64,000 bases of DNA from Salinimicrobium gaetbulicola (GTDB lineage: Bacteria > Bacteroidota > Bacteroidia > Flavobacteriales > Flavobacteriaceae). The stretch covers positions 873,709 through 937,708 of the forward strand of contig NZ_JBHTJP010000032.1 in NCBI RefSeq assembly GCF_042676025.1, written 5' to 3'. The notes beneath the pieces were generated by a model, which did no database searches, was not told the DNA's origin, and saw only the letters and a list, made by a program, of their open reading frames with translations. The translations under genes were made by a program, and so were the position numbers. Each line of letters begins with the position of its first letter. Position 1 is the first letter of the stretch. Positions 20,745 to 44,411 of the stretch are shown piece by piece.

Positions 20745-20764
20745 ATCACAAAAAAGGAAATAAT

Positions 20765-24931: not shown

Positions 24932-24934
24932 AAC

Positions 24935-25799: not shown

Positions 25800-25802
25800 C
25801 CT

Positions 25803-27005
25803 CTATTCTTTAACGTAATCTTCCAAATATTTAAATCTCTCGGTAAGCTTTCCGTCTTTGGTCATTCTGGCTCTTTCCAGGATCCCGTCTTTATCATTAT
25901 CAAAGAAAGCCGGTAATACGTTATCCAGGAACATTTGCCCGAATCCTTCGCTGGCATCTTTTGGCAGTTCGCAGGGCAGGTTATCTACAGCCATGACCGC
26001 GATCGCGTTCTTTTCCCGAAAATCAACTTCCCCACCGGTTTCCGGGCTGTAGCCGTAAAAAGGCTCGGCTATGGTAGAAGGACGAATCGTACTGGCAACA
26101 GGTCCTGCTATGTCACAGGAAATATCTGCTACATAGCGAATTTTGAAAGCCGCGGACTTGGTATCTTCAGCAGTAAAGAAAACCGGTGCTCCCTGGCCAT
26201 AAAAATGACCGGCTATAAAAAAGTCACTGGCCCTGGCGAAACGTAAAAAATCGGATTCATAATTTTCTGGATGGTCATAAAAATCCTGAACCGAAGCTTC
26301 CTTTCCATCTTTTCTCTTATTGTAATCCATGACATCAATATGGCAAAAGACCGGCTCCTCAAAGCTCTCTCTGAGGTACTCTTCTACTCCAACTTGTTTT
26401 ATTTGGAGATGATCCATGATCTCTTTGGCTCCATGCGCTACTTTCCCACTTCCGGTAAGCACTATCTTTATTGGAGGTACAGAAATCCTGTCCAGTTCTG
26501 CAAGCATGGTTTTTAGATCGGGGAGTTCCTCAGCTTTGGGTAACTCAAAAATACCTTTTTTAAGCCCCAGCATCCTGAAGCCGTTATAAGCTCCTACGAG
26601 TCCGGCATATCTTCCGAAACCAATCAGCCGGTGTCCCCGTTCATTAATGATCACCTCATGATCATACAGTTCAATATTATTTTTAAGGATCTCCCTTAAC
26701 AGGTCTCTGTTATAAGGTTGTTTTTTTATAGTATGGGAAAAGAAAAAGTATTTTTTATTCGGAATAAGAGCAGGAATAGGAACTTCCTTCACCCCTAGCA
26801 ACACATCGCAATCTGAAATTTCCCCGGAAACTTCAAAATCGGCATCAAGATATGCACTGTCGGGAAAGATTCGAATATCTGATGTTTCCACTTTAAAACT
26901 TGCCTCCGGAAACTTTTTCACGGCTTCTTTCAATTTTTGGGGAGAAAAAACTACTCTTCTGTCTGGTGGTGTTTTTCGCTCTTTAATGAGGGCAAATTTT
27001 ATCAT
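25803..27005 (-). CDS. AlaDH/PNT-family NAD(P) oxidoreductase (saccharopine-dehydrogenase-like)
   Basis: N-terminal LIKERKTPPDRRV…P resembles the substrate domain of lysine-forming saccharopine dehydrogenase. A central Rossmann segment has GSGKVAHGA. Confidence 0.65.
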   Translation of the reverse strand: MIKFALIKERKTPPDRRVVFSPQKLKEAVKKFPEASFKVETSDIRIFPDSAYLDADFEVSGEISDCDVLLGVKEVPIPALIPNKKYFFFSHTIKKQPYNRDLLREILKNNIELYDHEVIINERGHRLIGFGRYAGLVGAYNGFRMLGLKKGIFELPKAEELPDLKTMLAELDRISVPPIKIVLTGSGKVAHGAKEIMDHLQIKQVGVEEYLRESFEEPVFCHIDVMDYNKRKDGKEASVQDFYDHPENYESDFLRFARASDFFIAGHFYGQGAPVFFTAEDTKSAAFKIRYVADISCDIAGPVASTIRPSTIAEPFYGYSPETGGEVDFREKNAIAVMAVDNLPCELPKDASEGFGQMFLDNVLPAFFDNDKDGILERARMTKDGKLTERFKYLEDYVKE

Positions 27006-27129
27006 ATTTTGGTATAGGTTTTGAGTATTTATTGATGAATTTCAAAGATAGGAATTTAAAACCTATCTTTGCACTTCCCTGAAGCAGGATGGCACTTCGT
27101 GCCTTTGTTTCGGTAAGTTCTTTTTTTAT

Positions 27130-27527
27130 GGGGTCGACTTGGTTTTGACAGCGAGTCTAATTGAGTTGTAAGCACGTCGAGCGCTGGGAAATAGCTCGTA
27201 AATCTCATTTTTCACACTTTTTTAAACGGCGAGAATAACTACGCCTTGGCTGCATAATCCGAATCATAGTAGGATAGCTTAGTCCCTGCAAGGCAGGGAG
27301 CCAAGATGTCTCGTGGAAGCCTTGATTTACGGCGTCCGCACCAGAGGCACCGATAAAGTAAATATAGTAATCACAGGGCCTTGATGTGGTTGCGAAACTT
27401 AACCGAGGATACGTGTAAGATTGGTGGTTTTCGGCCGGTCTTGCATCGACAACCAAGCGAAAACTAAGCGTGAAGAAAGCATCTGAATTGCTTGTTTGGA
27501 CGAGGGTTCGAACCCCTCCGACTCCAC
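27130..27527 (+). ncRNA. ssrA: tmRNA (ssrA) with tag reading frame …GENNYALAA*
   Basis: 5' GGGGTCG pairs with 3' CGACTCC to give a 7-bp acceptor stem. A T-arm GGTTCGAACCCCTCC lies just upstream of the 3' end. The internal ORF gcg aga ata act acg cct tgg ctg cat aa encodes GENNYALAA-stop. CCA is not encoded. Confidence 0.9.
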
Positions 27528-27669
27528 GATCAAGCGCAGCTAAGTTGCGGATTAGAACAGGAAAATCCTGCCAAACAGTTGTTTGCGCGGGATTCTTTCG
27601 TTTTAAGACGCCCAGCCCGCAGGGATGGTTAAGCTTAGCTGCATTTGCAGAAAGTTAGTTTCAGGGGGA

Positions 27670-27740
27670 AGGCGCAGCCAACCCCTCCGACTCCACAATA
27701 TAACCCGGTAAGCCTTGTGTTTACCGGGTTTTTTGTTTTA
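27670..27740 (+). repeat. repeat B: copy of the tmRNA 3' end (AACCCCTCCGACTCCAC, identical to 27511-27527) fused to a hairpin plus T-run terminator
   Basis: The exact 17-nt match to the ssrA 3' end lies ~150 nt downstream of the gene. It is followed by CCCGGTAAgccttgtgtTTACCGGG and a T-run. Confidence 0.7.
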
Positions 27741-28054
27741 AGATAACAATATGGATGACAAATAAAACCTGTCTTATTCCTCTTATTGAAACCTTAATTT
27801 CTTTAAAAACATTTTTCGTTTAAAAGCTGACTTCAATAATGACTTTATTTAATCTATCTCGAAATTTTCGTCATTTCGTTTAGAAAGATGAAAAGAACAT
27901 TGGTTAAAATTATTATAGAAAATTCTTTAAGAATTTCCCCTTCTCTCTTCCCGGACCTCTTTCTTAAAGTCCTCAAAACCACCTTTCCTCTTTAAAGTAC
28001 AAGCCTATCAGACTCTTGGGATTTTATAGATTAGGAGTGTAGGCAACATCTACT

Positions 28055-28810
28055 TTAAATCTGCGACTTAATTTTAGCGAACTCCTGTTCCAGAAACCGT
28101 AGTTTTTCTTCGAGTCCGTTTCCGGTTTCAGGGACACGATGATAGAATACATAACAAATATTCCAAAGTTCTTTAACCTCGTCCAGCCCTAAAGTAATAT
28201 CTTCTATAAGTTTGTGGTCTGCCCTTAGCACAAGGCTTGATTTCAAGATATATCCTCTTCGTAATACCAGTTGGTCCTCGGTTATAACCAATAATAGTTT
28301 TCCATTGTCCAGGTTTTTATATTCCTTTTTCGGCACAAATTGTCCAACCACCACATCCTTAGGAAATAACCCTTTTTCATGTGAACTCATCTCCAGAGAG
28401 TCTACCACAAAGCCTCGAAAGGATAAATCTCTGCTAATTGGCAACCTGAGGCAGGGTAGTCTACTTATAAATTCCTGGTTACCATACTCGGAAAGGTAGC
28501 TATTCCTGTTTGTAGGGACTATACAGGGAACGGAGGCGAACTGCTCTTTTAAAAGCTCGTCCTGATTTTCTGCAAAGTCGCCCTTAAACCTAAGCAACCG
28601 GTTTACCGTAAGCTCTTTCGTCAGCAATTCGTCGATGGAAATGCTAAAATGCTTAGCAATTTTTATCACGGTATCGATCTTTGGCTCACTCCTCCCCTCC
28701 TCATAAGCACCTAAGGTCCCGCGCTTTAAATCAAACATTTCCGCAAAGGCTTGCTGACTTAAAGATTTCACAGTGCGGATCTTCTTAATGTTTTTTCCAA
28801 AAAAAGACAT
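28055..28810 (-). CDS. phage-CI/LexA-like transcriptional repressor (HTH_XRE N-terminus plus S24 peptidase-like C-terminus)
   Basis: The N-terminal …IKKIRTVKSLSQQAFAEMFDLKRGTLGAYEEGRSEP…ISIDELL is a canonical XRE helix-turn-helix. The C-terminus carries VVDSLEMS, resembling the S24 GDSM catalytic-Ser motif, with basic residues downstream. Confidence 0.7.
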   Translation of the reverse strand: MSFFGKNIKKIRTVKSLSQQAFAEMFDLKRGTLGAYEEGRSEPKIDTVIKIAKHFSISIDELLTKELTVNRLLRFKGDFAENQDELLKEQFASVPCIVPTNRNSYLSEYGNQEFISRLPCLRLPISRDLSFRGFVVDSLEMSSHEKGLFPKDVVVGQFVPKKEYKNLDNGKLLLVITEDQLVLRRGYILKSSLVLRADHKLIEDITLGLDEVKELWNICYVFYHRVPETGNGLEEKLRFLEQEFAKIKSQI

Positions 28811-28884
28811 ATTTTGCTAATTTTATTTGCGTTAATGAAATAAATTCGTACATTGGTCTAACAATATTAGCAAAAAAGTTTGGG

Positions 28885-28894
28885 ATTAGCTAAT
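28885..28894. promoter_or_regulatory. candidate operator: perfect palindrome ATTAGCTAAT in the divergent promoter region, with further GCTAAT/ATTAGC half-sites at 28816-28821 and 28866-28871
   Basis: Read directly from the sequence between the repressor start (28810) and the first gene of the pspA operon (29112). Confidence 0.25.
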
Positions 28895-29111
28895 ATTATG
28901 AGGAGGACATTGACCCTTCCGATAATAAATTTCTCAGGACTGAATATTTTTTCGGGTAACATTTTAAAGAAATTCATACTAACCTATAACAAAACATTAT
29001 GATACCATTAATTATTTGCTTTTTTACTCAAGTAGTTAAACTTTTGGCTACCATGCTTTAGAGTTTTTTCGTAATATTAACTTTTAGAAATTTTTAACAA
29101 TCCCGCCAATA

Positions 29112-29507
29112 ATGAAAAACCACTTCAATATCACTAAAGATTTTTTACTGGAGCTAAATTTCCACATTAGTCGAGAGGATACGGAGAATAATGTTCTTGT
29201 GGTCCAAAAAGAAAACCACGGGATTAGAAACCTCATATTAGGGATTGCTCCTCCAATTTTAATCATGGAGCAGTATATTTTCAAGGTGAGCAACCAATCT
29301 GAAAAGGTTTTTAAAAACTTACTCCAAAAAAACAGGGATGTCATTCATGGAGCTTTTGTTTTGGATGATTCCGGTGAAAAAGTAATTTTCAGGGATACCC
29401 TTCAAATTGAAAACCTTGATATCAATGAACTCGAAGGCAGTCTTAATTCTTTAAGTCTCTTAATGAGTGAATTCTCAGACCGTATAATTGAATTTTCTAA
29501 ATACTAA
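29112..29507 (+). CDS. hypothetical cytoplasmic protein, YbjN-like (T3SS-chaperone-like fold) suspected
   Basis: 131 aa and acidic. Its alternation of hydrophobic beta-like segments and a C-terminal helix resembles YbjN-domain proteins, a weak call. It is the first gene of the operon and its end overlaps the pspA-like gene. Confidence 0.5.
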   Translation: MKNHFNITKDFLLELNFHISREDTENNVLVVQKENHGIRNLILGIAPPILIMEQYIFKVSNQSEKVFKNLLQKNRDVIHGAFVLDDSGEKVIFRDTLQIENLDINELEGSLNSLSLLMSEFSDRIIEFSKY

Positions 29508-29523
29508 CCTTAACCTTTACATC

Positions 29524-30240
29524 ATGAATATTTTTAAACGTTTATTTAAAATTGGGCAGGCAGAAACAAATTCTGCAATTGACAGCATGGAAGATCCTAT
29601 CAAGATGACCGAACAGGGCATCAGGGATATGAAAGAAGATCTGGACCGAAGCCTCGAGGCACTTGCACAGGTAAAAGCATTGGCAATAAGAGCCAAAAAT
29701 GACCAGGAAGAGTACCAGGAAAAGGCGGAAGAATACCAGAAAAAGGCCATTATTATTCTTAAAAAAGGTCATAGCAAAGAACTTGAACCTACCGAAGCAG
29801 ATGAGCTTGCAAAAGAAGCACTTGTTCAAAAAGAAACTGCAGAGAAACAGGCAGGTCGCAGTAAGGAGGAAGCCGCTAAGTTTGATGATAACGTGGCGCA
29901 ATTGCAAAAAACAATCCAGTCTATCAAGAGCAATATCAGCAACTGGGAAAATGAACTTAAAACCCTGAAGGCACGTGTAAAAGTTTCTAAGGCTACTACG
30001 AACCTTAACAAACAAATGGCTGAACTCGACAGTACTGGAACTGTTTCAATGCTTGAGCGAATGAAAGAAAAAGTAGCCCAGGAAGAAGCTCTTGCTGAAG
30101 CCTATAGCGATATTGCGAATGCATCAAAGTCTGTTGACGAAAAGATCGACAAGGCTGCAGATACTTCCAAAGCTAAAGCAGATGACGATCTAGCTAGATT
30201 GAAAGAACAATTAGGTCTTAACGCTAACAAAGATTCATAA
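29524..30240 (+). CDS. pspA: PspA/IM30 (phage-shock protein A / Vipp1, ESCRT-III-like) family protein
   Basis: N-terminal MNIFKRLFKIGQAETNSAIDSMEDPIKMTEQGIRDMKEDL matches the PspA amphipathic N-terminus and first helix (compare MGIFSRF…EDPEKMLEQ…IRDME). The remainder is a long coiled coil. Start set at the ATG at 29524. Confidence 0.85.
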   Translation: MNIFKRLFKIGQAETNSAIDSMEDPIKMTEQGIRDMKEDLDRSLEALAQVKALAIRAKNDQEEYQEKAEEYQKKAIIILKKGHSKELEPTEADELAKEALVQKETAEKQAGRSKEEAAKFDDNVAQLQKTIQSIKSNISNWENELKTLKARVKVSKATTNLNKQMAELDSTGTVSMLERMKEKVAQEEALAEAYSDIANASKSVDEKIDKAADTSKAKADDDLARLKEQLGLNANKDS

Positions 30241-30242
30241 TT

Positions 30243-30953
30243 TTGGGCAACCTTTATGACATTTTATTCTCTGAGGTCAACCTTATATTGACCGTTCTCC
30301 TCATTGTTCTCCTTCTTTACTGGATAGTTTCAATGATTGGCGGATTAGACTTCGACGTTGACTTTGATGTAGAGGTCGATCTTGATCCGGCGATTGACGC
30401 CGGCACCGCAATAGATGGAGGCAATATGGATTTCCAGGACCTCTCCAATGCGGAAGTGAACCAGGAAGATGTGGTGGGAAAAAGACGAAGACCACTTAAA
30501 TGGTGGCAGGTTTTTTTAATCTACTTCAATTTTGTTGGACTTCCCTTCATGTTCACCTTTACCTGTTGGATTTTTATTTGGTGGTTTATGACCGCATTGA
30601 CTACGGCAATGACCTTTTCCTATGACAATTATTTCGGCTTTGCGATTATGTTGATTGCCATGTTTCCGGCACTTATCGTCAACAAAATACTCACAACCCC
30701 TTTTAAAGGTTTCTTTAAAAATCTGAACAAAAACGGTGACACCCCTATAGATTATCTTGGCCGAAAAGGTCTTTTACTCTCTTCTATCTCAGGTGACAGG
30801 ATGGGTAATGCCGAAGTAAAAGTCGACGGCAACACCATGTCTATTTATGTAAAATCCCTTTCCGGAGATCCCCTACCCTACGGAAGCAATATTTTAATTA
30901 TTAAAAGGTCTCCGGACCAAAATTACTACCTAGTTGAAAATTATAACGAATAA
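30243..30953 (+). CDS. NfeD/YqiJ-like membrane protein (N-terminal TM helices plus C-terminal OB-fold), predicted partner of the flotillin
   Basis: Several TM helices, then a C-terminal soluble beta-rich domain (GRKGLLLSSISGDRMGNAEVKVDGNTMSIYVKS…ILIIKR). It sits immediately upstream of an SPFH protein, as in the yqiJ-yqiK and nfeD-floA pairs. TTG start 2 nt after the pspA stop. Confidence 0.6.
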   Translation: MGNLYDILFSEVNLILTVLLIVLLLYWIVSMIGGLDFDVDFDVEVDLDPAIDAGTAIDGGNMDFQDLSNAEVNQEDVVGKRRRPLKWWQVFLIYFNFVGLPFMFTFTCWIFIWWFMTALTTAMTFSYDNYFGFAIMLIAMFPALIVNKILTTPFKGFFKNLNKNGDTPIDYLGRKGLLLSSISGDRMGNAEVKVDGNTMSIYVKSLSGDPLPYGSNILIIKRSPDQNYYLVENYNE

Positions 30954-30964
30954 ATAAAAATTTA

Positions 30965-33037
30965 ATGGAATCAATTCTACAAATTATCGGACTTGGAATA
31001 GGCGTGCTGCTGTTCCTTATAGTAGTCTATTTCGCGATCATTGCGATGTTCTACAAAAAAGTTCCGCAGGGGCAGGCATTAATCAGAACAGGGTTTGGAG
31101 GCACCCAGGTCGCAACAGACAAAGGACTATATGTTGTTCCTGTTTTTCACAAAGTGGAGATCATGGATGTTTCTGTCAAAAAAATTCAGATCGAGCGATT
31201 GGCTCACGAAGGGCTTATCTGTAAAGACAATATGAGAGCAGACATCAAAGTTGCTTTTTTTGTAAGAGTAAATAACGATGTGGAATATATTAAAAAAGTG
31301 GCCCAAACCATTGGAGTAGCCCGTGCATCTAGGATCGAAACCCTGGAAGATCTGTTTGAGGCAAAATTTTCCGAAGCTTTAAAAACAGTCGGTAAAAAAT
31401 TTGAATTTATTGAACTATATGAAGCCCGCCGGGAATTTCGCGATGAAATCGTTGACATTATAGGGACTGATCTTAATGGATATACCCTCGAAGACTGCGC
31501 AATTGATTATTTGGAGCAAACTTCAATAAAAGAGCTAAAGCCGGACAATATCCTTGATGCAGAAGGTATCAAAAAGATCACTGAATTAACCGCGGTTCAA
31601 AGTGTTAAAGCAAATCTTATCAAAAGGGACGAAGAAAAAACCATCAGGAAGCAGGATGTAGAGGCAAGAGAAGCCATTCTTGAACTGGATAAGCAGTTAG
31701 CTGAAAAAGAAGAGCAGCAAAAACGTGAGATCGCAAATATCAAGTCTCGTGAAGAAGCTGAAACACTGAAAGTAGCTGAAGAGGAGCGGTTAAAATCTGA
31801 AACTGCTCGCATTATCACTCTGGAAAAAGTAAAGGTTGCCGAAGAAAACATGGAGCGCCAGGTTATTGTTGCCCTTAAAAACAAACAACGCACCGATGCT
31901 GTCGAAACAGAACGTGTGGAAAAAGATCGTTTACTCGAAGCTACCGAGCGGGAAAGAGTAGTGACCCTTGCACAGATCGAGAAAGAAAAAGTGGTGGAAG
32001 TTGAGAAGAAAAACATCCAAGATATTATCCGCGATAGGGTCGCCCTGGAAAAAGGCGTGGTCGAAGAGCAGGAAAACATGAAAGATATCCAGGCTTTTAA
32101 AACTGCAGACCGTGACAAACAGGTAAAAATCACTCTTGCTGAGGCCAATGCTGAGGAAGATCTTATTAAAACCATTAAAGCTGCTGAAGCACAAAAAGAA
32201 GCCGCAAAACAAAAAGCTGAAGAGATCAATATCGAGGCCCTTGCTCATAAAGAAGCTAGTGAGAAAGAAGCTGAGGCTCGCAAGATCCTTGCTGAAGCAC
32301 AGGCCAAAGAAGAAGCTACTGTTGGAATGTCTGAAGCACAAGTAATGCATGCAAAAGCAGATGCAAATGAGCGTCAGGGACTGGTAGAAGCCAATATTAT
32401 TGAGAAAAAAGCCAAAGCAGAAGCGGCCGGTATTGAGGCCAAAGCCGAGGCGAAGCGTAAAGACGGACTTGCAGAAGCTGCGGTAATAAAAGAAAAGGCA
32501 TTATCTGATGCTGCCGGGATCGAAGAGAAAGCAAATGCTATGAAGAAACTGGATGGCGTAGGTAAAGACCATGAAGAATTTAAACTGCGCCTGGACAAGG
32601 ACCTGAAGGTAGACCTTGCACACATCAATGTTCACAGGGATATTGCAGACGCCCAGGCAAAAGTACTTGGAGATGCATTAAAAGCTGCTAAAATCGATAT
32701 TGTAGGTGGTGAAACAATGTTCTTTGAACAGATCGTTGGACAGATTGCCAGAGGAAAAGGAATTGACCGACTTGTAGAGAACAGCAGCAACATACGCGAA
32801 GTCAAAGAAGCTGTTCTGGGTGATGAACAGGCCAATGGAAACCTACTGGACAAGATCAAGACCTTTACAGAAAAATACGGTATATCTGCAGAAGACATCA
32901 AGAACCTCACTGTTGCCAACCTGTTACTCGATCTAAAGAGAAAATCTGATGATTCAGGAGAGCAGTCTACCCTCAGTAATTTGCTGAATATGGCTAATGA
33001 ACTGGGCATCGCAAACAAACCAATCAACAAACTCTAG
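30965..33037 (+). CDS. flotillin-family SPFH/band-7 protein (YqiK/FloT-like)
   Basis: N-terminal TM helix, an SPFH domain (…VPQGQALIRTGFGG…YVVPVFHKVEIMDVS…), then a ~350-aa E/A/K-rich coiled coil typical of flotillins. Confidence 0.85.
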   Translation: MESILQIIGLGIGVLLFLIVVYFAIIAMFYKKVPQGQALIRTGFGGTQVATDKGLYVVPVFHKVEIMDVSVKKIQIERLAHEGLICKDNMRADIKVAFFVRVNNDVEYIKKVAQTIGVARASRIETLEDLFEAKFSEALKTVGKKFEFIELYEARREFRDEIVDIIGTDLNGYTLEDCAIDYLEQTSIKELKPDNILDAEGIKKITELTAVQSVKANLIKRDEEKTIRKQDVEAREAILELDKQLAEKEEQQKREIANIKSREEAETLKVAEEERLKSETARIITLEKVKVAEENMERQVIVALKNKQRTDAVETERVEKDRLLEATERERVVTLAQIEKEKVVEVEKKNIQDIIRDRVALEKGVVEEQENMKDIQAFKTADRDKQVKITLAEANAEEDLIKTIKAAEAQKEAAKQKAEEINIEALAHKEASEKEAEARKILAEAQAKEEATVGMSEAQVMHAKADANERQGLVEANIIEKKAKAEAAGIEAKAEAKRKDGLAEAAVIKEKALSDAAGIEEKANAMKKLDGVGKDHEEFKLRLDKDLKVDLAHINVHRDIADAQAKVLGDALKAAKIDIVGGETMFFEQIVGQIARGKGIDRLVENSSNIREVKEAVLGDEQANGNLLDKIKTFTEKYGISAEDIKNLTVANLLLDLKRKSDDSGEQSTLSNLLNMANELGIANKPINKL

Positions 33038-33044
33038 CAGAATT

Positions 33045-33080
33045 AAGCGCCCTGGTAATTCTTAACAGGGCGCTGTTTTT
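33045..33080 (+). terminator. rho-independent terminator after the flotillin gene
   Basis: GCGCCCTGgtaattcttaaCAGGGCGC hairpin followed by TGTTTTT. Confidence 0.6.
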
Positions 33081-33244
33081 ATCGACTTATAAAACTTCCA
33101 CTTAAGGCAAACTTGCTATTTAGTTAGGATAAGTAGTTATACCAATGGGACGCATGAAAAATACAAGAGTAATAAGAACTCATTTTTAAAGCCACCCGTA
33201 TGGACAACAGCAATAATATTTTCGCCTAAAAGGAAAAAGCAGAA

Positions 33245-36200: not shown

Positions 36201-38173
36201 CCAAAATACGTGCCTACGCCCAGTACTTCTGGAACAGCCTTCCTGAAAAAATAAAAGATGATCTTGACCGAGGATTAAAAGCTTCAGGCGAGGTACTGAG
36301 TATTTTTCCGGACACCCAAGAATATGACTTTGTCATTAGAGACCTGAGCGACCATGCTAGAAAATTTGCTACGGAAACAGCACTTTTTGATCCTGCTCTG
36401 AGTGAAGAAATAGCAGCTTATATTTTTGAAGAATTGCAGGGCGATGACGAATTTGAACGCAGCCATGTCGCCCTTACCATAAAAGGAGATTTCTGGAAAG
36501 CCTTGAAAAAGGAGCAGGTAGATCTAAGGTTTAAAAACAGCTTGGAATCGGTGACTAATTATGTAGACAGAATTCGCCTGGTAAAGCAATGGATCTCGGC
36601 TTTCGTGAACAGCAAAGCTAAAGCTGAAAAGACTTCTGAAACGATTGAAGCCACTAATTACATTGATGAAGTTGTTTGCCGAATTTTATCTGAGGATGAA
36701 TCAGTTTCCAAAACCAAAACGGTGACCCCCGCGGAGACCATAGAAGGTCTTACCGGCGATCATCCTACTTTCAAAAAAGGCATCTTTCATTTTCAATATC
36801 ATAACTTTATTTCTCAACTGGAGCAGTTTGTAAGAGAAGATATTCCCACGTATAACACCTACCGGAAAACCAAACATGCGCTCACAAAGCAACTGAAAGA
36901 GGAACTAAAACTGGAAGAATTCAAACCAAGAGTACTGACTTCTTTTGTCCGGAATAAATTGATAGACCAAGTTTACTTTCCGCTGTTTGGAGACAACCTG
37001 GCAAAACAGCTGGGAACCGTTGGAGATAAAACCAGGACAGACCGAAGCGGAATGCTTCTACTCGTATCCCCACCGGGATACGGTAAAACCACGTTAATGG
37101 AATACATTGCCGATCGTCTGGGGCTCGTTTTTATGCGCATCAACGGACCTGCAATCGGGCATGATATCACTTCAATAGATCCGGCTTCGGCTACCAATTC
37201 AGGTGCCAGGGAGGAGTTGAAGAAGCTAAATCTGGCGTTTGAAATGGGCAACAATGTGATGTTGTATCTGGATGATATACAGCATTGTAATCCAGAATTC
37301 CTCCAGAAATTCATTTCCCTTTCTGACGGAACCAGAAAAATTGAAGGGATATTTAACGGAAGATCCAAAACCTATGATTTGCGTGGAAAGAAATTCTGCG
37401 TGATCATGGCAGGGAACCCATACACCGAAACCGGGGATAAATTCAGAATACCTGATATGCTGGCGAACAGGGCAGATATCTACAACCTGGGAGACATCAT
37501 TGGTGATACAGAGCACCTGTTCAAACTCAGTTTGATCGAAAACTCCCTCACTTCTAATCCTCTTTTGCAGCAGCTTAGCAGCTCCAACTTTGAGGATGTA
37601 TATACGCTTTTGGATCGTGTGGAAAATAACAACCAGGAGACGCAACTAATAGGCAATCACAGCTCACAAGATGTTCAGGAATACACTTCAATACTAAAAA
37701 AGGTGGTTAGCCTTCGCGATACAGTACTAAAAGTAAATGCTGCTTATATCAAAAGTGCAGCTATGGAAGATGAATACAGAATAGAACCTGCATTTAAGTT
37801 GCAGGGCTCCTATAGAGATATGAACAAACTTGTGGCGAAAGTAGTGCCGATCATGGACGAGAAAGAGCTACAGCGATTGGTTCTTTCCCATTATGAAAGT
37901 GAATCACAAACCCTCACCTCCTCTGCCGAAGCAAACCTGCTAAAGTTCAAAGAACTGGTAAATGCATTGAATCCTGAAGAACAGGAACGTTGGACCAAGA
38001 TTTGCGAAACATTTTTAAAAAACAATAAACTGAAAGCTTTTGGAGACAAAAATGAAATGGCACAGGTACTATCCCAGATGATGCTGTTCTCTGAAAACCT
38101 TGAAGGTATCAAGAAAGTTCTGGAGCGGGGAATTGAAAACGGACTTGAACGCCCCGAATTGCCGCAGTTATAA
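33245..38173 (+). CDS. giant (1642 aa) multidomain protein with a single AAA+ ATPase domain (MoxR/dynein-like AAA_5-type) near the C-terminus
   Basis: Walker A LLLVSPPGYGKTTLMEY (~aa 1275), Walker B-like VMLYLDDIQH, and a downstream sensor/Arg region (MAGNPYTETGDKFRIPDMLANRADIY). The N-terminal ~470 aa is a globular region of unknown function. aa ~470-1250 is helical/coiled-coil rich. Confidence 0.8.
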   Translation: MEMAVQEQKNKSSQTLDGGTYEVIQGRLQKQKKDLQDRLQKLDTDRKKVFGSLETKLISNDRINTENRCIARDIVSFGDTCLFGYNVHFGLRTEINISDVFSVYEFKNNKLEPKTLEILENELFQSDFTNLYKYYRHTIFSKFAIIGNYLYMVFRLSESVTDIKTFKWLIKEESLEYVDNRSDHEYKFQAQHEFKWREVTRDMHRYGVHSHVSILDRVFVETIGGDLTIKIEDNTEDGKGILTEPVEHRDQTLDDGNYRFGQIGNLIPLEIKPFQEPARYFVYNHKLREVKKIESIKESCILLPDDQGIIFPNGYYLQTGEYKIFTNSIDDVKFEQKIASPNGEDFLYVFYSPQKGLYNLMSYNIISREIQTPIICNGFTLLKNGELCYFRSEEEQTRHHVIQIWQTPFLKGDFMPSQHEDTLLYKIGNKEIVQAMAEANSLINLLNKEDNYDGLYNDIARVSKDILDSYYWLPEAESQQLNEPLSEINKAANAAMDEFEKVVQLKKNATKQTNEIQEKAEALFTKIKSSSFNSINDFVAFLTELRKLRGEALSLKEVRYVNEEFIKKLEEEIATHTTKLSERCVKFLLDEKALQPYHDKVGEKQAALEKVTKVVDVRKLEEEVNQIAADLELLIDIITNLDIEDTSHSTTIIDNISLIFSTINQLKAALKNKKNALGSAEARADFAAQLKLIDQSIINYLDMAGTPEKCDEFQTKISIQLEELEGKFTDFEEFIGSIIEKREEVHAAFESKKNALVEKRNKKALALHNASERILKGARSKVQSFRTAAEIQGYFASDLMINKVRDIIQQLKDLDDSGKAEEIETSLKSARENALRQLKDKLDLYEDGDNIIRLGKHKFGVNKQPLDLSIVFKSGTPYCHLTGTDFYQELSDSTLLNSKDLWDQEFVSENSKVYRSSYLAYKLFKKLPHEQLLHAGEEELLRIVQQESSSDYSEGYLKGVHDVDASKILKVLVHKHHAMGLLRFPPKIRAYAQYFWNSLPEKIKDDLDRGLKASGEVLSIFPDTQEYDFVIRDLSDHARKFATETALFDPALSEEIAAYIFEELQGDDEFERSHVALTIKGDFWKALKKEQVDLRFKNSLESVTNYVDRIRLVKQWISAFVNSKAKAEKTSETIEATNYIDEVVCRILSEDESVSKTKTVTPAETIEGLTGDHPTFKKGIFHFQYHNFISQLEQFVREDIPTYNTYRKTKHALTKQLKEELKLEEFKPRVLTSFVRNKLIDQVYFPLFGDNLAKQLGTVGDKTRTDRSGMLLLVSPPGYGKTTLMEYIADRLGLVFMRINGPAIGHDITSIDPASATNSGAREELKKLNLAFEMGNNVMLYLDDIQHCNPEFLQKFISLSDGTRKIEGIFNGRSKTYDLRGKKFCVIMAGNPYTETGDKFRIPDMLANRADIYNLGDIIGDTEHLFKLSLIENSLTSNPLLQQLSSSNFEDVYTLLDRVENNNQETQLIGNHSSQDVQEYTSILKKVVSLRDTVLKVNAAYIKSAAMEDEYRIEPAFKLQGSYRDMNKLVAKVVPIMDEKELQRLVLSHYESESQTLTSSAEANLLKFKELVNALNPEEQERWTKICETFLKNNKLKAFGDKNEMAQVLSQMMLFSENLEGIKKVLERGIENGLERPELPQL

Positions 38174-38190
38174 ATTTAAAAATTCCTTTT

Positions 38191-38247
38191 CCTCCAACTC
38201 CACAATATAACCCGGTAAGCCTTTTTTTACTGGGTTTTTTTGTTTTT
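38191..38247 (+). repeat. repeat C: second copy of the ssrA 3'-end fragment plus terminator (CCTCCAACTCCACAATATAACCCGGTAAGCC…TACTGGGTTTTTTTGTTTTT)
   Basis: ~57 nt, about 88% identical by eye to repeat B (27685-27740). It also acts as a rho-independent terminator for the giant gene. Confidence 0.7.
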
Positions 38248-38476
38248 AGGTGACAAAAATATTTGACTATTTCCTGAGAACTAGCTTAGAGCTTTTGAAC
38301 CTACAGAGCCACATTTCATTATAAACTATTCTGAGTGTTAATTTTTTAATTATAGATCACTGACAATCAATAACGAAGAAAATCCTCAGTAAAAAACAAC
38401 TATTTTTCCTTTGATTATTATTTAGATTGATTCTACATTTGCCATTGTTTTTAATTAATCTAAATAAGAATCATTA

Positions 38477-40819
38477 ATGAAATCCCTCCTATTTTCTACC
38501 TTAATGCTGTTTAGTGTTATTGCCAGCGCTCAAAATGCCTCCCTCTCAGGACGGCTTACTAATACACTGGGTGAGGTTATCCCTTTTGCAACGATAAGCT
38601 TTCAGAAAGCACCTTATACTTCGACTACTTCCGAAACCGGACAGTACATTATCCGGGATATTTCTTCTGGTAGCTATACCGTTATTTATTCTTCCCCAGG
38701 TTTCACTACCGTGGTTCGGGAAGTAAATTTAAAAGCGGGTGAAGAGCGAATACTTGATATCCAACTGGAAGAAGACATTAAGACACTGGATGAAATTATA
38801 ATTACCTCAAATAGAAGAATAGAAACGCTTGACGAAGTGCCTTCTTCGGTATCAGTATTAAGCTCTGCACAAATTGAAAAACTATCTCTTACCAGTAACT
38901 CAGTTGCAGACATCATGAACGAGGTGCCGGGACTGGCTTTAAGTACAAGCCAGACCAGCAATACTGGGCAGACCCTGCGTGGAAGAAAAATGCTGATATT
39001 GATCGATGGGATTCCTCAGTCCACCCCATTAAGAAACGGAAGCAGAGATGTGAACACGATCGACCCTAACGTGATAGAGCGGATTGAGGTGATCAAAGGA
39101 GCAACGGCCATTTATGGAAATGGTGCTGATGGAGGGATCATCAATTACATTACAAAAAATCCAAAAGCCTCAGAAAAACTTGAAAGTACCACCGAACTTA
39201 GCAGCGGAATTTCACTGGTAGATACAGATCACTCTCTTAGCTCAAAGCTATCTCAGACTTTTTCAGGACAAGTTGGAAAATTAGGGTATGTTGCCAACGG
39301 AAGCTTCCAGCAAACTGGGGTTTTTCGGGATGCAAACGGAGAAATAATCTCTCCTTCTTATGGCCTGGGAGAAACGGACCAATATAACCTGTTTGGAAAG
39401 TTTAACTATCAAATTAATCAGGATCATTCCCTTGAGTTCATGTACAACTACTTCAGCAGCAATCAAGACACTGAATACATCAATCAACCCGGAGTATACG
39501 GGGTAAGACCAGCTATAGGTGTGATTGGGGAAGACCCGGGAGTAGCCCAGGGAAATCGCTACAATCATAACGGTCAATTTACATATAACGCTTTCAACTT
39601 GATTGGAAACACAGATTTCAATTTAAACCTATATTTTCAGAACTTCCAAACCATTTATGGCTTTTCACCTTTCTTCTCTAATGAAGAAACCGGATATGAA
39701 GGAGGCCAGTCTATGATTGAGTCAGATAAAAAAGGGGCACGCATCAATTTCAAGACACCCTATACTCTTGGAAGTAAATTTTCGGGTGATATTCTTTACG
39801 GGGTTGACATCCTGAACGATGTTACCTCGCAGTACCTGGTTGATGGCCGTTTATGGGTACCCGAAATCGACATGAGCAACCTTGCCCCTTATGCACAATT
39901 AAAGTCCCTTTACAAAGATTTCGTCTTTAAAGCCGGGATACGCTTGGAGAATATAAATATTGACATCCCAGATTACAGAACTATATACATCTATCCAAAT
40001 GGGGGCACACCGCAAGGAAACGTAGCTGTTGAAGGAGGGGAATTAAAGTATGATGCCACGACCTTAAATGTAGGTTTACGATTTAACCGATGGTCACAAT
40101 TCAAACCTTTTGCAAGTTTCTCCCAGAGTTTTTCTATTGCAGATTTAGGCCGTACCCTTAGAAGTGCCACAGAGAATACCGTGGGTAATATTTCTTCGGA
40201 AGCAGTAATCGCCAATAATTATGAGGTTGGTTTTAATAGTTACCTTGGAAGGACCAGTATTAGTGGAGCATACTTCTTGAGTACTTCAGAACTTGGAGCA
40301 ACTTACCGAGAGGTTAACGGAATATTTCAGATCGCCCGTCAGCCTGAAAAGGTTTATGGTTTTGAATTAGCTGTAGATACTAAACTTACTGACCGAATCG
40401 ACCTGGGAAGCTCACTTTCCTGGACAGAGGGAAAACTGGATTCTGAAGACAACGACAACTATGATACATGGATGAACGGGGATCGCATCCCTCCTTTGAA
40501 GACTGTGACATATTTAAGCTATAATGCTTTTGATAAATTGAACTTAAGATTATCACATGTTTATAGTGGAAGGCGTGACCGTTTCGAGCCGAAAGCAGAT
40601 GGCAGCTACACTTATGGCCAGGGGCGGGTCGAGGACATCAACCTATTTAATCTTACCGCCAATTATAAAATGACAAACCAAACCTCCTTAGGACTAGGGG
40701 TCGAAAACCTCTTTAATGAAGATTATTATCTACCCATTTCCCAGTGGGATGCCAGACCGCAAAATTATATTAAAGGTAATGGAGCAAGGCTGAGTCTTTC
40801 TCTTAAAGTGAATTTATAA
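38477..40819 (+). CDS. TonB-dependent outer-membrane receptor with N-terminal carboxypeptidase-regulatory-like domain
   Basis: Signal peptide. SGRLTN…G…IPFATISF CarbopepD_reg-like domain. A plug region (DEVPSSVSVLS, TonB-box-like), then a long beta-barrel. Confidence 0.85.
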   Translation: MKSLLFSTLMLFSVIASAQNASLSGRLTNTLGEVIPFATISFQKAPYTSTTSETGQYIIRDISSGSYTVIYSSPGFTTVVREVNLKAGEERILDIQLEEDIKTLDEIIITSNRRIETLDEVPSSVSVLSSAQIEKLSLTSNSVADIMNEVPGLALSTSQTSNTGQTLRGRKMLILIDGIPQSTPLRNGSRDVNTIDPNVIERIEVIKGATAIYGNGADGGIINYITKNPKASEKLESTTELSSGISLVDTDHSLSSKLSQTFSGQVGKLGYVANGSFQQTGVFRDANGEIISPSYGLGETDQYNLFGKFNYQINQDHSLEFMYNYFSSNQDTEYINQPGVYGVRPAIGVIGEDPGVAQGNRYNHNGQFTYNAFNLIGNTDFNLNLYFQNFQTIYGFSPFFSNEETGYEGGQSMIESDKKGARINFKTPYTLGSKFSGDILYGVDILNDVTSQYLVDGRLWVPEIDMSNLAPYAQLKSLYKDFVFKAGIRLENINIDIPDYRTIYIYPNGGTPQGNVAVEGGELKYDATTLNVGLRFNRWSQFKPFASFSQSFSIADLGRTLRSATENTVGNISSEAVIANNYEVGFNSYLGRTSISGAYFLSTSELGATYREVNGIFQIARQPEKVYGFELAVDTKLTDRIDLGSSLSWTEGKLDSEDNDNYDTWMNGDRIPPLKTVTYLSYNAFDKLNLRLSHVYSGRRDRFEPKADGSYTYGQGRVEDINLFNLTANYKMTNQTSLGLGVENLFNEDYYLPISQWDARPQNYIKGNGARLSLSLKVNL

Positions 40820-40836
40820 ACACTAATACAGCAGCT

Positions 40837-41919
40837 ATGGGTACGCCCGTAGCTGCTTTTCTTATGAAAAACAGGCAGATCTTAAAATACCATTCTATAG
40901 CCGGACTTGTGGTTGGAGCTTTTTTGTTCCTTATGGGCCTGTCCGGAGCAGTCCTTGTTTTTCAGCATGATATAGAGGATCTTCAATGGGAGAAATATAA
41001 ATCTGTCTCCTCAGCTGAAGATTTAAATATTGATCTAGGAATTAATACCATACAGGAAAACTACCCTGGCTGGGATACCAGGCTTATTCATTTTAAAGCA
41101 AAGGAATCCCTGGTCTTCAATTTGCGGAAACCAACCGAACGATTATTTGTCTTTATCCATCCTTCCTCCGGGGAAATTATAAAAGAGGTTAATGAACTTA
41201 CTACCTTTACCCGTTGGTTGCTGAAGTTCCACTATTCCTTCCAGGCAGGTCCTGCCGGAAGAATTTTGGTTTTTTTCGTAGGCTTACTGTTCCTGTTTTC
41301 AATTTTATCCGGATTATATCTATACCGAAAATCTTTTTTTAAAACCTTGTTCTTTAAAATGAGGATCGTCTCGAAGAATAAAAGAACCTTTTATTCTTCC
41401 CTGCATCGAATTGTGGGAGTGTGGAGCCTGATCTTGAACCTACTTCTGGTAGTTACAGGAGTGTTTCTTGCCTGGACGGTAGCGGCAGCAGGATTGAAGC
41501 CGCCGTCCACGCCAGAAACTCCAATTGTCACCACATCTGTTGAGGAGCTTTTGAATAAAATAAATATCCAAAACCAGGATTTTACGCCCACATATATACG
41601 CCTTCCATTATCACCCGGTGGCGATCTTAGAGTGTATGGGCTTTATGACGATGATGCTTTTTTCTTTTCGGAATTCTACAACAGTTTCTTGGCCAATTAT
41701 GAGACTGGAGAGATCACCGGAAAAATAAGGGTTCAGGAAGCTGACTTAAAAACCCAATTATCCAGCACATTAATTCCATTGCATTTTGGGCAATATGGAG
41801 GGATATGGAGCAAGATATTGTATTGCCTTACGGGTCTTTCTGGTCCTTTCCTTTCAATTTCTGGGTTTATAATCTGGAAAAAGAGAAATGATAAGCGAAG
41901 GTATATTCACAAAGCTTAA
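40837..41919 (+). CDS. PepSY-associated TM-helix protein
   Basis: N-terminal …YHSIAGLVVGAFLFLMGLSGAVLVF, the hallmark first TM of PepSY_TM proteins. Four TM helices with periplasmic PepSY-like inserts. Adjacent to a TonB-dependent receptor as usual. Confidence 0.8.
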   Translation: MGTPVAAFLMKNRQILKYHSIAGLVVGAFLFLMGLSGAVLVFQHDIEDLQWEKYKSVSSAEDLNIDLGINTIQENYPGWDTRLIHFKAKESLVFNLRKPTERLFVFIHPSSGEIIKEVNELTTFTRWLLKFHYSFQAGPAGRILVFFVGLLFLFSILSGLYLYRKSFFKTLFFKMRIVSKNKRTFYSSLHRIVGVWSLILNLLLVVTGVFLAWTVAAAGLKPPSTPETPIVTTSVEELLNKINIQNQDFTPTYIRLPLSPGGDLRVYGLYDDDAFFFSEFYNSFLANYETGEITGKIRVQEADLKTQLSSTLIPLHFGQYGGIWSKILYCLTGLSGPFLSISGFIIWKKRNDKRRYIHKA

Positions 41920-41932
41920 GAAAGCAAACCCA

Positions 41933-43333
41933 TTAATCATCAACCAAACTGATCTTGTATATCTTGCCTGTATTTCCTGTAGGCCCCAACTCGCTTGATA
42001 CCGCAAGATAAATCTCTCCCTCGAGGTCTTGTCCGAAACCTTTTAGAAAATATCCAATATCTCCAGGGGTGCTTTTGAACTCCAATTCTTGAAAATCCCA
42101 AAGACCAGGACCGGAAGGATTGGCAAAAAATACTTCTCCTGTAGGCTCAAAGTCTCTGGAAAATGATCCAAATACATATTGCCCACTTAATTCAGGGATG
42201 GCACTACCCCTATAAACATATCCTCCAATGATAGTAACAGTTGAACCTCCAGCAGGGTTACTCGTATTGCTCATCTCTATTACGGGATCGATCAGCTCGT
42301 TGCCCAGGTTATCGATATCGGGACAAGAAGCCAGCACATTTAGATTATTGGAAGCATCAAAACAATGAGTTCCTTCTTTTACGTTCCAACCATAATTACC
42401 GCCATTTTCCACTACACTAATTTCCTCCCATAAGCGTTGGCCGGCATCTCCTACAAATAACCGGTGATCTCCTCCCATATCAAATGAAAATCTAAACGGG
42501 TTCCTGAAGCCATAAGCATAGATTTCATCCTTCCCTTCAGAATTTACGAATGGGTTATCACCAGGGATACCGTAAGAATCACCGCTATCAACATCTATTC
42601 TTAAAATATTTCCCAGAAGGTTAGCTTCAACGTCCTGGCCGTTCCCTCCTTCATTCACTTCATACCAATCCTCAACATGCCCCGGAGACACATCATCAGA
42701 GTCTCCTCCATCCCCAATAGAGATGTAGAGGTAACCGTCAGGTCCAAAAGCTATAGTTCCACCTTCATGATTACCTTGTGGTTGATTGATGTCCAAAATT
42801 ATTTTTTCTGAGCCGGCCATTACCATAGTTGGATCGGTATCTGAGACAATGAACTCAGATATTCTACTAGTATTATCCCACATTTCTCCTTCCTCGGGTC
42901 CTCCGGCTTTTGGCGGGGCTGTATAATAAACAAATAGCCGTCCATTTGAGCTGTAGTCCGGATGAAAAGCAAGACCCAGTAAGCCTCTTTCATCATAATT
43001 TGGAGTCAAGGAAACCATCATTGAGCTCACATCCAGGAAAGGATCTTCCAGTAATGTACCCGAATCATCAATGACCCAAACTTTCCCGATCTGGTCTATT
43101 ACGAATAAGTTTCCTGAGTTATCAGGTGAGGGGACAAGACCCACTGGAGATGCCATATTTTCAGCCACCAGGACAAGATCAATAGACTGGCTTTGCTCCA
43201 CGGGAGGAGGTGTGTTGTCATCGTCATCTGAACATCCTATTGCGCCAAAAAGCAGGGAAATTAAGCATATATATATCGGTAAGAACAAATTTCTACCGAA
43301 ATGTCCAAAATGTATAATTTTCGAATTTTTCAT
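41933..43333 (-). CDS. PQQ-dependent soluble sugar (glucose/sorbosone) dehydrogenase family beta-propeller lipoprotein
   Basis: Lipoprotein signal (AIGCSDDDD). PVGLV…DNSG.LFV.DQ.GKVWVI and LLGLAFHPDY blocks are typical of the YliI/GSDH family. Confidence 0.7.
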   Translation of the reverse strand: MKNSKIIHFGHFGRNLFLPIYICLISLLFGAIGCSDDDDNTPPPVEQSQSIDLVLVAENMASPVGLVPSPDNSGNLFVIDQIGKVWVIDDSGTLLEDPFLDVSSMMVSLTPNYDERGLLGLAFHPDYSSNGRLFVYYTAPPKAGGPEEGEMWDNTSRISEFIVSDTDPTMVMAGSEKIILDINQPQGNHEGGTIAFGPDGYLYISIGDGGDSDDVSPGHVEDWYEVNEGGNGQDVEANLLGNILRIDVDSGDSYGIPGDNPFVNSEGKDEIYAYGFRNPFRFSFDMGGDHRLFVGDAGQRLWEEISVVENGGNYGWNVKEGTHCFDASNNLNVLASCPDIDNLGNELIDPVIEMSNTSNPAGGSTVTIIGGYVYRGSAIPELSGQYVFGSFSRDFEPTGEVFFANPSGPGLWDFQELEFKSTPGDIGYFLKGFGQDLEGEIYLAVSSELGPTGNTGKIYKISLVDD

Positions 43334-43736
43334 AGCAAGAATTATTTTAAAAGATTATACCAGTTAAGGGAGCCTTTTAAAATTACCAAGATCTATTATG
43401 AGTTGGAATATTTTGTAGATGTATCCTTACAATTTTAACAGCTTCAATAGGCGATTTACCATTATTTTATAATTGATATCGGTTTTTAAAAACAATAATT
43501 AATAACACTAAAATATTTTTACGTAAATAATATTAATAACTTCGTAAAAATGTTAAACTTAAAGTTGAATTTATAGATTTTTGTAATTTTGATGAATATT
43601 TAATTTTTAGAGTTTATAAGATTATAAACTTTACTTATTCATCGATAAATCCCCCTCACTTACCTGCCTCAATTTTATCTGACTTCACCCAGGCAATCAT
43701 GAAGATACAAGGAGTATTAATTTAAATTATTGGATT

Positions 43737-44138
43737 ATGGACAGGAAAACATTTATTCAGAAAACAACAATGGGGATACTTTTAAGCATTCCGGCAGTTA
43801 GCATGCTCGGTTGCTCAGGATCTGATGATAACGGAAATGGAGTTCCAGACCCCGATCCCGATCCAACACCCACTGCGAAAAATTGCGTGGAAAACGGAAC
43901 CAGCGCTTCGGTAAGTTCGGCGCAGAATCATACTCACACTCTAACCGTTTCTAAAGAGGATGTTTCGGCTGCCACTACCAAGACTTATGATCTAAGCGAG
44001 TCAGCAAATCATATACACCAAGTTACACTTGAAGCAAATGATTTTCAAGCGCTGAAGGATAATCCAAACCAATCTATTACAAAGGTATCTACTACAAATA
44101 GCCAACACAGTCACAACGTAACAGTTTCCTGTGCCTGA
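43737..44138 (+). CDS. small lipoprotein with three H-x-H motifs (putative metal-binding)
   Basis: Lipobox MLGCSGSDD, a DPDPDPTPT linker, then three units of ~30 aa each containing N/Q-H-x-H-x-(V/L)-T-(V/L): QNHTHTLTV, ANHIHQVTL, SQHSHNVTV. Confidence 0.5.
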   Translation: MDRKTFIQKTTMGILLSIPAVSMLGCSGSDDNGNGVPDPDPDPTPTAKNCVENGTSASVSSAQNHTHTLTVSKEDVSAATTKTYDLSESANHIHQVTLEANDFQALKDNPNQSITKVSTTNSQHSHNVTVSCA

Positions 44139-44227
44139 TCTTTGTAATGTTCTAATTTAAATCCCTTTTTGCATTCAGGTAAAAAGGGATTACTTTTCTA
44201 CTGTATTTTCTGGATTATATCAGGATA

Positions 44228-44249
44228 AGGCACAGCCAACCCCTCCGAC
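44228..44249 (+). repeat. repeat D: 22-nt copy (one mismatch) of the left arm of repeat B (AGGC[G/A]CAGCCAACCCCTCCGAC)
   Basis: Direct match read from the sequence: 27670-27691 versus 44228-44249. Confidence 0.55.
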
Positions 44250-44411
44250 CCTAACAAAACTTATGTTTACAGGAGATTTCTCCCCACACTTTCCATACTT
44301 ACGGAGCAATGCACAATCGGTTTCTCGGAATGACTGCAATATTACGGCCATTGCAAAAAGAATAAAACCGCAATCATTGCGGTTTTATTCTTTATATCCA
44401 TCAAATAAGCA

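Follow-up and report, generated by a model that had tools for sequence, protein, structure and literature searches.

Genomic islands in tandem at the gene for transfer-messenger RNA (tmRNA), ssrA, have been described in Dehalococcoides, where 15 of these ssrA-specific genomic islands (ssrA-GIs) lack integration modules (McMurdie et al. 2011, PMC3146451), and the tmRNA gene is the most enriched target of islands (PMC4383910). The cis-mobilizable elements (CIMEs) and microCIMEs of streptococci have kept both attachment (att) sites while losing the genes for recombination and transfer (Lao et al. 2020, PMC7563491); the microCIMEs of Streptococcus salivarius are gene-less units of 130-220 bp that are sometimes paired (PMC7563491). 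Here we have analyzed a stretch of 64,000 nucleotides of Salinimicrobium gaetbulicola (NCBI RefSeq assembly GCF_042676025.1, contig NZ_JBHTJP010000032.1, positions 873,709 to 937,708 of the forward strand), called the window in what follows, in which the tmRNA gene is followed by three displaced copies of its own 3' end. In our judgment the region quite probably holds several non-autonomous integrative elements, arrayed in tandem at the 3' end of this gene. General background on the tmRNA gene as an integration target is reportedly to be found in 'Traffic at the tmRNA gene', published by Williams in 2003 (J Bacteriol 185:1059).

The 3' end of ssrA and its displaced copies

The window contains a single tmRNA gene according to ARAGORN, and the Rfam model RF00023 matches it with 128.6 bits at 27130-27529. 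The features of the array, with positions counted from the first letter of the window, are the following.

27130-27527, + strand: tmRNA gene (ssrA), target of the array, with the tag GENNYALAA
27511-27527, + strand: core copy A, the last 17 nt of ssrA, an attL-type junction by sequence comparison
27528-27679, + strand: body of a gene-less, microCIME-like mini-element, recognized from colinear units in relatives
27535-27549 and 27558-27604: P' arm of the mini-element, made of an invariant hairpin and a terminator, respectively
27610-27629: third hairpin of the mini-element
27631-27679: P arm of the mini-element
27680-27696, + strand: core copy B, an exact 17-nt ssrA 3' end, at which the mini-element ends on its right and segment 1 begins on its left
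27697-27749, + strand: T_B, a diverged version of the terminator module of ssrA, composed of a hairpin, a T-run and GATAACAA..GATGACAA and located at the left end of segment 1
27750-38190: segment 1
38191-38256, + strand: repeat C, which bounds segment 1 on the right and combines the 13-nt core CCTCCAACTCCAC with the terminator module T_C
38257-44192: segment 2
44193-44251, + strand: repeat D, a P-arm homologue (~44193-44237) plus the truncated core AACCCCTCCGACCC (44238-44251), a strain-variable junction

Core A spans the end of the T-loop, the 3' T-stem and the 3' acceptor strand up to the discriminator. The 17-mer AACCCCTCCGACTCCAC occurs exactly twice in the window, at A and at B, and a second occurrence was obtained in none of 100 shuffles. 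Core B has AAGGCGCAGCC directly on its left and a hairpin/T-run terminator (27702-27740) on its right, of which the hairpin (27702-27730) and T-run are scored as a terminator. B (27684-27749) and C (38191-38256) constitute a direct repeat of 66 nt with 83% identity and a distance of 10,507 bp, in which the C core carries one mismatch in 13 and the sequence AATATAACCCGGTAAGCC is confined, within the window, to the two copies. D resembles the left arm of B and not C, sharing 22 of 23 positions (44227-44249) with the left arm of B plus 12 nt of its core (27669-27691), while its overlap with C is limited to part of the core. All displaced core copies (27680, 38191 and 44238) lie on the + strand downstream of ssrA, none of the repeats would be expected by chance, and no further copies of them exist within the 64-kb window.

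The comparison with other organisms rested upon a scan of species-representative genomes, which yielded 80 loci, and upon 118 related loci overall; the L numbers below designate loci or contigs. Neither in these 118 loci nor in the window do the repeats occur away from ssrA, and the idea of a dispersed, terminator-associated repeat was rejected on this ground. The original prediction, made from the letters of the stretch alone, had located copies B, C and D, described them accurately and interpreted them as the footprint of serial integrations at ssrA. It had further claimed that no tyrosine or serine recombinase is encoded between 27.5 and 44.3 kb, a claim that can be extended to the whole 64 kb: a Pfam scan of all window open reading frames (ORFs) of at least 180 aa, plus the smaller ones called between 27.5 and 46.7 kb, returned neither a recombinase nor a transposase, and tblastn with three integrases from relatives found no match in the window.

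The footprint interpretation gains support from conspecific sequences, in which segment 1 is either present or absent. L090, a conspecific metagenome contig of 6744 nt (ENA ERZ23499196), is 99% identical to window 21107-27762 and past core B joins window 38191-38346; its order is ssrA, the 169-bp unit formed by the mini-element and one core, the core, the C-version terminator and the start of segment 2, segment 1 being absent precisely from B to C. Its terminator contains an extra 12-nt GGTGACAA repeat unit that is missing from window C, as well as four single-nucleotide polymorphisms (SNPs) just beyond, on account of which L090 can be considered a separate allele rather than the window sequence spliced together. 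The overlap of L090 with another contig of the same sample, L111, which extends through segment 2, amounts to 55 nt. The occupied state is found in L084, from another sample, whose giant protein is 99% identical to that of the window and whose core at the C position is unmutated, CCTCCGACTCCAC; this contig terminates within the repeat. Given that segment 1 is missing from L090 and present in L084 and in the window, it is strain-variable, and would seem to vary as a unit between B and C. Since the terminator copy at B has diverged, T_B is best read as island-borne, and the terminator of repeat C is probably the resident terminator of ssrA. A further conspecific metagenome contig, L118, stops exactly at the last base of ssrA (27527), even if the repeated core is only 17 nt long, which weakly suggests that strains in its sample differ in what follows ssrA.

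In many genera the T-type module is followed by a tandem motif, GGTGACAA-N4-GGTGACAA, of which window C (38247-38256) lacks one unit through a 12-nt deletion (compare the reverse complement of L090, ~6640-6665), with copy B showing GATAACAA..GATGACAA at the corresponding position (27742-27761). These tandem motifs may be arm-type binding sites. The contigs L111-L113 all start just right of the 12-nt indel at C.

A second polymorphism coincides with repeat D. L111 and L112 are 99.4% identical to window 38292-44259 and then depart inside the D core, continuing as ...AAGGCACAGCCAACCCCTCCGACCC-CAC into a hairpin and terminator with the same architecture as the P' arm of the mini-element, and then into a DUF3857 gene on the minus strand, whereas the window reads ...CCGACCC-TAACAAAAC and runs onward into the GNA1162 operon. 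The junction between D and DUF3857 is present in two assemblies, ENA and Logan, which stem from different pipelines. With 76.5% identity, the DUF3857 gene resembles a gene of the 7.7-kb TPR/DUF3857 cassette which lies beside ssrA in S. catena L086 and is absent from S. catena L085 and L087; this L086 cassette is bordered by a terminator of the mini-element type at one end, and at the other by a P-arm-like sequence plus a degenerate core. Comparison of L111/L112 with the window thus provides a precise empty site for the cassette at D. The GNA1162 side is found in L115-L117, which are 99% identical to the right flank of the window, all start at 44193-44211, namely the left edge of the P arm, and exhibit core variants such as AACGCCTCCGGCCCTAAC. 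At the D core, the window reads AACCCCTCCGACCC followed by TAAC, L111 reads ...GACCC followed by CAC and P', and L115 reads AACGCCTCCGGCCC followed by TAAC; these junctions would be in line with a conservative exchange located in the CCC of the core, a crossover position that we infer because the junctions stem from different samples. By this evidence D appears to be a live junction, differing between strains. Neither segment 1 nor the cassettes of L086 and L111 contain relaxase, recombination or conjugation genes, according to Pfam and gene lists.

The islands were expected to be variably present. This holds for segment 1 but not for segment 2, as every conspecific contig contains the latter, and a fully empty site, with ssrA followed by the terminator and then by 44.3 kb onward, was not found among the loci compared.

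Recurrence in relatives: ssrA flanks, mini-element and cargo

In all 30 loci scanned with ARAGORN, ssrA adjoins an AlaDH-like gene, which in the window lies on the minus strand just before ssrA. The AlaDH-like protein of the window matches that of S. gaetbulicola with 100% identity. The genes upstream (RNR, MscS, EEP, AlaDH) are syntenic within Salinimicrobium, whereas downstream nothing is conserved. At least four alternative flank modules abut ...GACTCCAC, stacked in differing orders per genome. In 12 loci with the class 1 module (CTTTTTGAGTACCAAACTC...; L001-L004, L011-L013, L023, L024, L047, L057 and L064) a tyrosine integrase (Arm-DNA-bind_5 + SAM_5 + Phage_integrase) is encoded within ~250 nt downstream of ssrA. 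The T-type terminator, AATATAACCCGG..., lies immediately 3' of ssrA in other genera (L055, L017, L020, L022, L008, L048), as had been expected of a site that carries its terminator directly after the gene, and at distal core copies in L005, L015 and L026. Second or third core copies follow ssrA in many loci, in varying order, and in L009 and L067 an integrase of a different type adjoins a distal core copy. From the modular flanks, the repeated cores and the integrases of relatives we consider ssrA to be an active, crowded integration site in this clade.

Several observations on these flanks deserve mention. Class 4 flanks comprise a GC-rich hairpin/terminator, an GGCGAGCTACGGTGGAC...GTCCAC motif and a gene for a small GIY-YIG nuclease (80-113 aa), as seen in L085 (reverse complement 11858-12900), L086, L088/L089, L006, L016, L018, L062 and L110:100-500; in S. 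catena the unit is repeated three to four times in tandem and has the appearance of an array of selfish GIY-YIG cassettes next to the tmRNA gene. In two Christiangramia species, L010 and L014 (reverse complement ~12040-13450), the first gene after ssrA is the same unannotated ORF of 400 aa, but the arm-only flanks of ~100 nt that precede it differ, being class 1 in one and P'-like in the other; arms would therefore persist or be swapped without the rest of the element. Behind the P'-like arms of L014 and L044 there is no integrase, only ordinary genes. A scan with the tmRNA 3' end matched 18 viral contigs of IMG/VR (L092-L109, for example L098:1009-1100), and in L098, L102 and L104 a fragment of the tmRNA 3' end runs straight into the 5' start of a tmRNA gene. 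These matches show only that phages of Bacteroidota carry or flank a tmRNA 3' end.

The ~150 nt that follow ssrA had been regarded in the original prediction as the deleted remnant of an earlier element. Comparative evidence indicates, instead, a conserved and recurrent mini-element, not a lineage-specific deletion scar. Colinear units are present in Christiangramia echinicola (L015), C. portivictoriae (L026), a metagenome-assembled genome (L021), the conspecific L090 and S. soli (L088/L089), in total no fewer than five further genomes, spread over three genera or more, with a core-to-core period of 169 bp in the window and 162-170 bp in relatives. Both genome records of S. soli possess two mini-elements in tandem, with cores 170 bp apart. 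The seven colinear copies that we have aligned have a mean identity of 77%, share the invariant hairpin CGCAGC/GCTGCG, and display compensatory changes in the long terminator and in the third hairpin. In all seven loci (window, L090, L015, L021, L026, L088, L089) the mini-element directly adjoins ssrA, and in none of them does it stand in tandem with an integrative and conjugative element (ICE) or an integrative and mobilizable element (IME). Some genomes have the T-type module after the second core, whereas L021 has class 1 there and S. soli and L110 have class 4. L005 contains a circularly permuted form, in the order P arm, core and P' arm, at a distance of 5.7 kb downstream from ssrA. The mini-element has no ORF and no Rfam match up to E = 1.

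Scanning metagenomes for P arm plus core retrieved a single contig, L110, in which the mini-element precedes the GIY-YIG module, while the scan for core plus terminator ACTCCACAATATAACCCGGTAAGCC gave 0 matches, as did the scan of viral contigs for the P arm; no ICE or IME carrying these arms was seen in the 118 loci. The third hairpin (27610-27629; alignment columns 120-137), past the terminator, keeps its pairing across genera via double changes, CCA..TGG versus CTG..CAG, and may be an RNA structure or a protein-binding inverted repeat. One could imagine that the 169-bp unit is a maintained, trans-mobilized 'att-plus-terminator' module that has repeatedly landed on ssrA across genera, giving the tmRNA precursor its hairpin and terminator and providing a docking core for integrase-less cassettes, its recombinase being encoded outside the array by a helper element or, conceivably, by the host, as in Xer-exploiting elements; we regard this proposal as rather doubtful.

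The genes carried between the repeats, and those of the right flank, were annotated with Pfam and are the following.

28055-28810, - strand: HTH_3 regulator (segment 1)
29112-29507, + strand: CesT/Tir (segment 1)
29488-30240, + strand: PspA (segment 1)
30243-30953, + strand: 236-aa protein (segment 1)
30965-33037, + strand: Band-7/flotillin protein (segment 1)
33245-38173, + strand: DUF3686-DUF7902-AAA+ giant protein of 1642 aa (segment 1)
38477-40819, + strand: TonB-dependent receptor (segment 2)
40837-41919, + strand: PepSY_TM (segment 2)
41933-43333, - strand: GSDH (segment 2)
43737-44138, + strand: 133-aa protein, p133 (segment 2)
44252-46694, - strand: right flank, GNA1162-like / DUF4810 / 108-aa / CsgG-like operon

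The 10.5 kb of segment 1 include no recombinase according to Pfam. Its CesT/PspA/band-7/AAA+ genes belong to an operon class that has been described (PMC11237479), and L081 and L083 have the six-gene operon too, HTH gene included, with 88% and 83% identity, respectively, in different surroundings and with no copy of core or terminator. Two functional readings of segment 1 were rejected on these grounds: that of a defence system, as PADLOC gave only generic HTH matches and the cargo is a published operon class, and that of the HTH gene as a mobile-element repressor, as this gene is found with the operon also in L081 and L083, where there is no att context. In L081 (1-20119), the closest other species, the operon lies between AbiEii/DUF6577/M48 genes and an EEP/Hc1/integrase/tRNA-Asp group, and could be cargo of a tRNA-Asp island; there is no second tRNA-Asp fragment within 20 kb in L081.

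Segment 2 has island-like ends, with core and T module on the left and P arm and core on the right. It could represent either an island that has become fixed or native sequence that was rearranged, and elsewhere its two gene pairs are found apart from each other. Its TonB/PepSY pair recurs in an unrelated context in L114, and its GSDH + p133 block is found, inverted, just behind the ssrA-adjacent integrase of Christiangramia oceanisediminis (L024, 4535-6770; reverse complement 14425-16660), with 72.7% nucleotide identity to window 41937-44191. Mesonia oceanica (L048, 222-1616; reverse complement 19576-20969) has the giant DUF3686-AAA+ gene in inverted orientation, at a distance of ~7.7 kb downstream from ssrA. 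With the blocks of L048 and L024, both types of cargo recur near ssrA in other genera. An inverted repeat of 21 nt, 90% complementary, upstream of the TonB receptor gene (window 38412-38473) is kept in L114; it is probably an operator of the TonB/PepSY pair and not part of the att array. The right flank (44252-46694) is ordinary chromosome outside the array, and after its operon come S9 peptidase and ResB/CcsA genes; the remaining window is likewise ordinary chromosome, including BipA, DAHP synthase, RNR, NrfAH and KatG.

Origin of the array and competing explanations

In evolutionary terms, the explanation that we favor is that each element joined by conservative site-specific recombination at a core corresponding to the last 12-17 nt of ssrA, every insertion regenerating the end of the gene and displacing the former end downstream. 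Reading outward from ssrA, the array would then consist of a 169-bp mini-element reduced to its two att arms, which would supply ssrA with its hairpin and terminator; of segment 1, with its own core and terminator copy and the HTH/CesT/PspA/flotillin/AAA+ membrane-stress operon; of the resident terminator followed by segment 2; and of site D, which in other strains is occupied by a DUF3857/TPR cassette. Any movement of the elements may depend on an integrase provided in trans or on carriage by an autonomous neighbour. The latter possibility recalls the accretion-mobilisation model, which is said to go back to Pavlovic and colleagues in 2004.

This explanation needs to be qualified by a series of points that weigh against it. 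A recombinase for this arm family was not found in the 118 loci or in the window, and mobilisation in trans is for that reason purely inferred. The absence of segment 2 was not seen in conspecific contigs (L111-L113), which show no polymorphism for it; the core of D is truncated and has no terminator; and the evidence for the empty site derives from short metagenome contigs, not from closed genomes. The comparison of composition that the original prediction had proposed for 27.7-44.2 kb turned out to be uninformative, with a GC of 0.40 versus 0.41, a tetranucleotide distance marginally above that of control chunks and no clear foreign signal. Both the PspA/flotillin/AAA+ operon and the TonB receptor occur widely among Flavobacteriaceae, and as their identities track taxonomy in a rough way, they are not obviously recent imports. 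Moreover, loss of segment 1 by homologous recombination in the 27-33-nt identical stretch of B and C would yield the same L090 sequence as a never-occupied site.

Several of these points lead to the alternative that we take most seriously, possible albeit clearly the less probable, namely that the array is an old fixed scar whose elements are now immobile, strain differences having arisen by RecA-type deletion or exchange between repeats, or by homologous replacement from other strains. Such a scar would account for the lack of an integrase in the window and in any cassette, for the native-like composition, for cargo genes that follow taxonomy and for cores that are mutated at C and D and shortened at D, and the identical stretch shared by B and C could support the deletion. 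It would account less easily for two independent polymorphisms which, in populations at least 99% identical, both fall exactly at core copies, or for a DUF3857 cassette that is variable beside ssrA also in a second species, S. catena. Nor would it be expected that the mini-element is duplicated in S. soli and precedes three different flank modules in different genera, or that the SNP pattern at the D core fits a crossover within 3 nt. The fixed scar overlaps with a mobile array in one respect, for it is compatible with the same origin by integration.

Assembly artefacts have to be considered next, since L090 and L111 are short scaffolds from one study and the contigs L084, L111-L113 and L115-L118 break at or near the repeats, a difficult spot for assemblers. 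If contigs had jumped between repeat copies, only the repeats would be real, and neither the empty site of L090 nor the alternative flank at D. This we judge improbable, because the terminator of L090 is a distinct allele (GGTGACAA unit and four SNPs) and not a B/C splice, the exact stretch shared by B and C is merely 27-33 nt, the D-to-DUF3857 junction recurs in the ENA and Logan assemblies, and the cassette beyond D has an independent homologue at a similar site in isolate genomes of S. catena. Least of all do we believe, as an idea already largely refuted, that the repeats are a terminator-plus-RNA-end module spread by local duplication or gene conversion as a useful terminator, unrelated to integrative elements: B and C are indeed both terminators at the ends of transcription units, and the terminator of the mini-element is structurally constrained, but the copies start exactly in the T-loop/acceptor region of ssrA, as att cores do, the same position is the border of elements with an integrase in a dozen relatives, the blocks between the copies are present or absent as wholes, and no copy occurs away from ssrA in the window or the 118 loci.

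Significance and comparison with known systems

Taken as an array of integrative elements, the locus leaves current concepts unchanged. The combination of empty and occupied sites at strain level presents the tmRNA gene as a busy docking site in marine Flavobacteriaceae, with at least four families of 3'-flank modules, at which whole operons would be shuffled as integrase-less cassettes, among them the PspA/flotillin/AAA+ membrane-stress system and the DUF3857/TPR cassette. For annotation this carries a warning, as island finders that rely on integrases would miss the entire array, while the defined att set (core, P and P' arms, T module) could be used to seek the recombinase. The least ordinary features are a family of integrase-less elements which share arm modules, for which the 118 loci and the window yielded no recombinase, and a conserved micro-element that always adjoins ssrA.

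The islands delimited by the Islander and TIGER approaches at tDNA (PMC4383910) resemble the array in having an intact tDNA and a displaced 3' fragment in the same orientation, with a core from the T-loop region, and in their sporadic presence with a precise empty site. Both of the latter features apply to segment 1 (L090 versus the window and L084), whereas segment 2 lacks sporadic presence. The Islander definition demands a tyrosine integrase gene inside the island, which is present in same-site islands of relatives but absent from the array throughout the 64-kb window; lacking an integrase, the array falls outside that definition.

Closer similarities are shared with the ssrA-GIs of Dehalococcoides, which are also serial islands downstream of a single tmRNA gene, each delimited by a short direct repeat that copies the 3' end of ssrA, with content that varies among strains; those without an integration module have been proposed to be cis-mobilizable (PMC3146451). 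The two systems differ in that many Dehalococcoides islands keep an integrase module, while the S. gaetbulicola array has none, and in that the Dehalococcoides repeat is a uniform 20 bp, while the repeats of S. gaetbulicola carry differing arm modules (P', P and T-type). Hosts and cargo are different as well, with a membrane-stress operon in a marine flavobacterium on the one side and dehalogenases in Dehalococcoides on the other.

With respect to streptococcal elements, the array corresponds in structure, on the features described above, to both CIMEs and microCIMEs. Segment 1, flanked by att-type repeats of 66 nt with 83% identity, and the DUF3857 cassette fit 'classical CIMEs', whereas the 169-bp unit fits the description of a microCIME in being gene-less, bounded by att repeats and within 130-220 bp. 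It departs from the arrangement of S. salivarius, where microCIMEs lie farthest from the target gene and in tandem with an ICE or IME, for the mini-element is the unit closest to ssrA in seven of seven genomes and its array contains no ICE or IME; furthermore, it is conserved in three or more genera and its hairpins covary. Both kinds of element, islands without integrase in tandem at ssrA and microCIMEs devoid of genes, are already in the literature. However, the streptococcal targets are protein genes, rpmG, rpsI, fda and rplL, whereas that of Salinimicrobium is ssrA, and the present locus would extend elements of microCIME type from the protein-gene targets of Firmicutes to an RNA-gene target in Bacteroidota.

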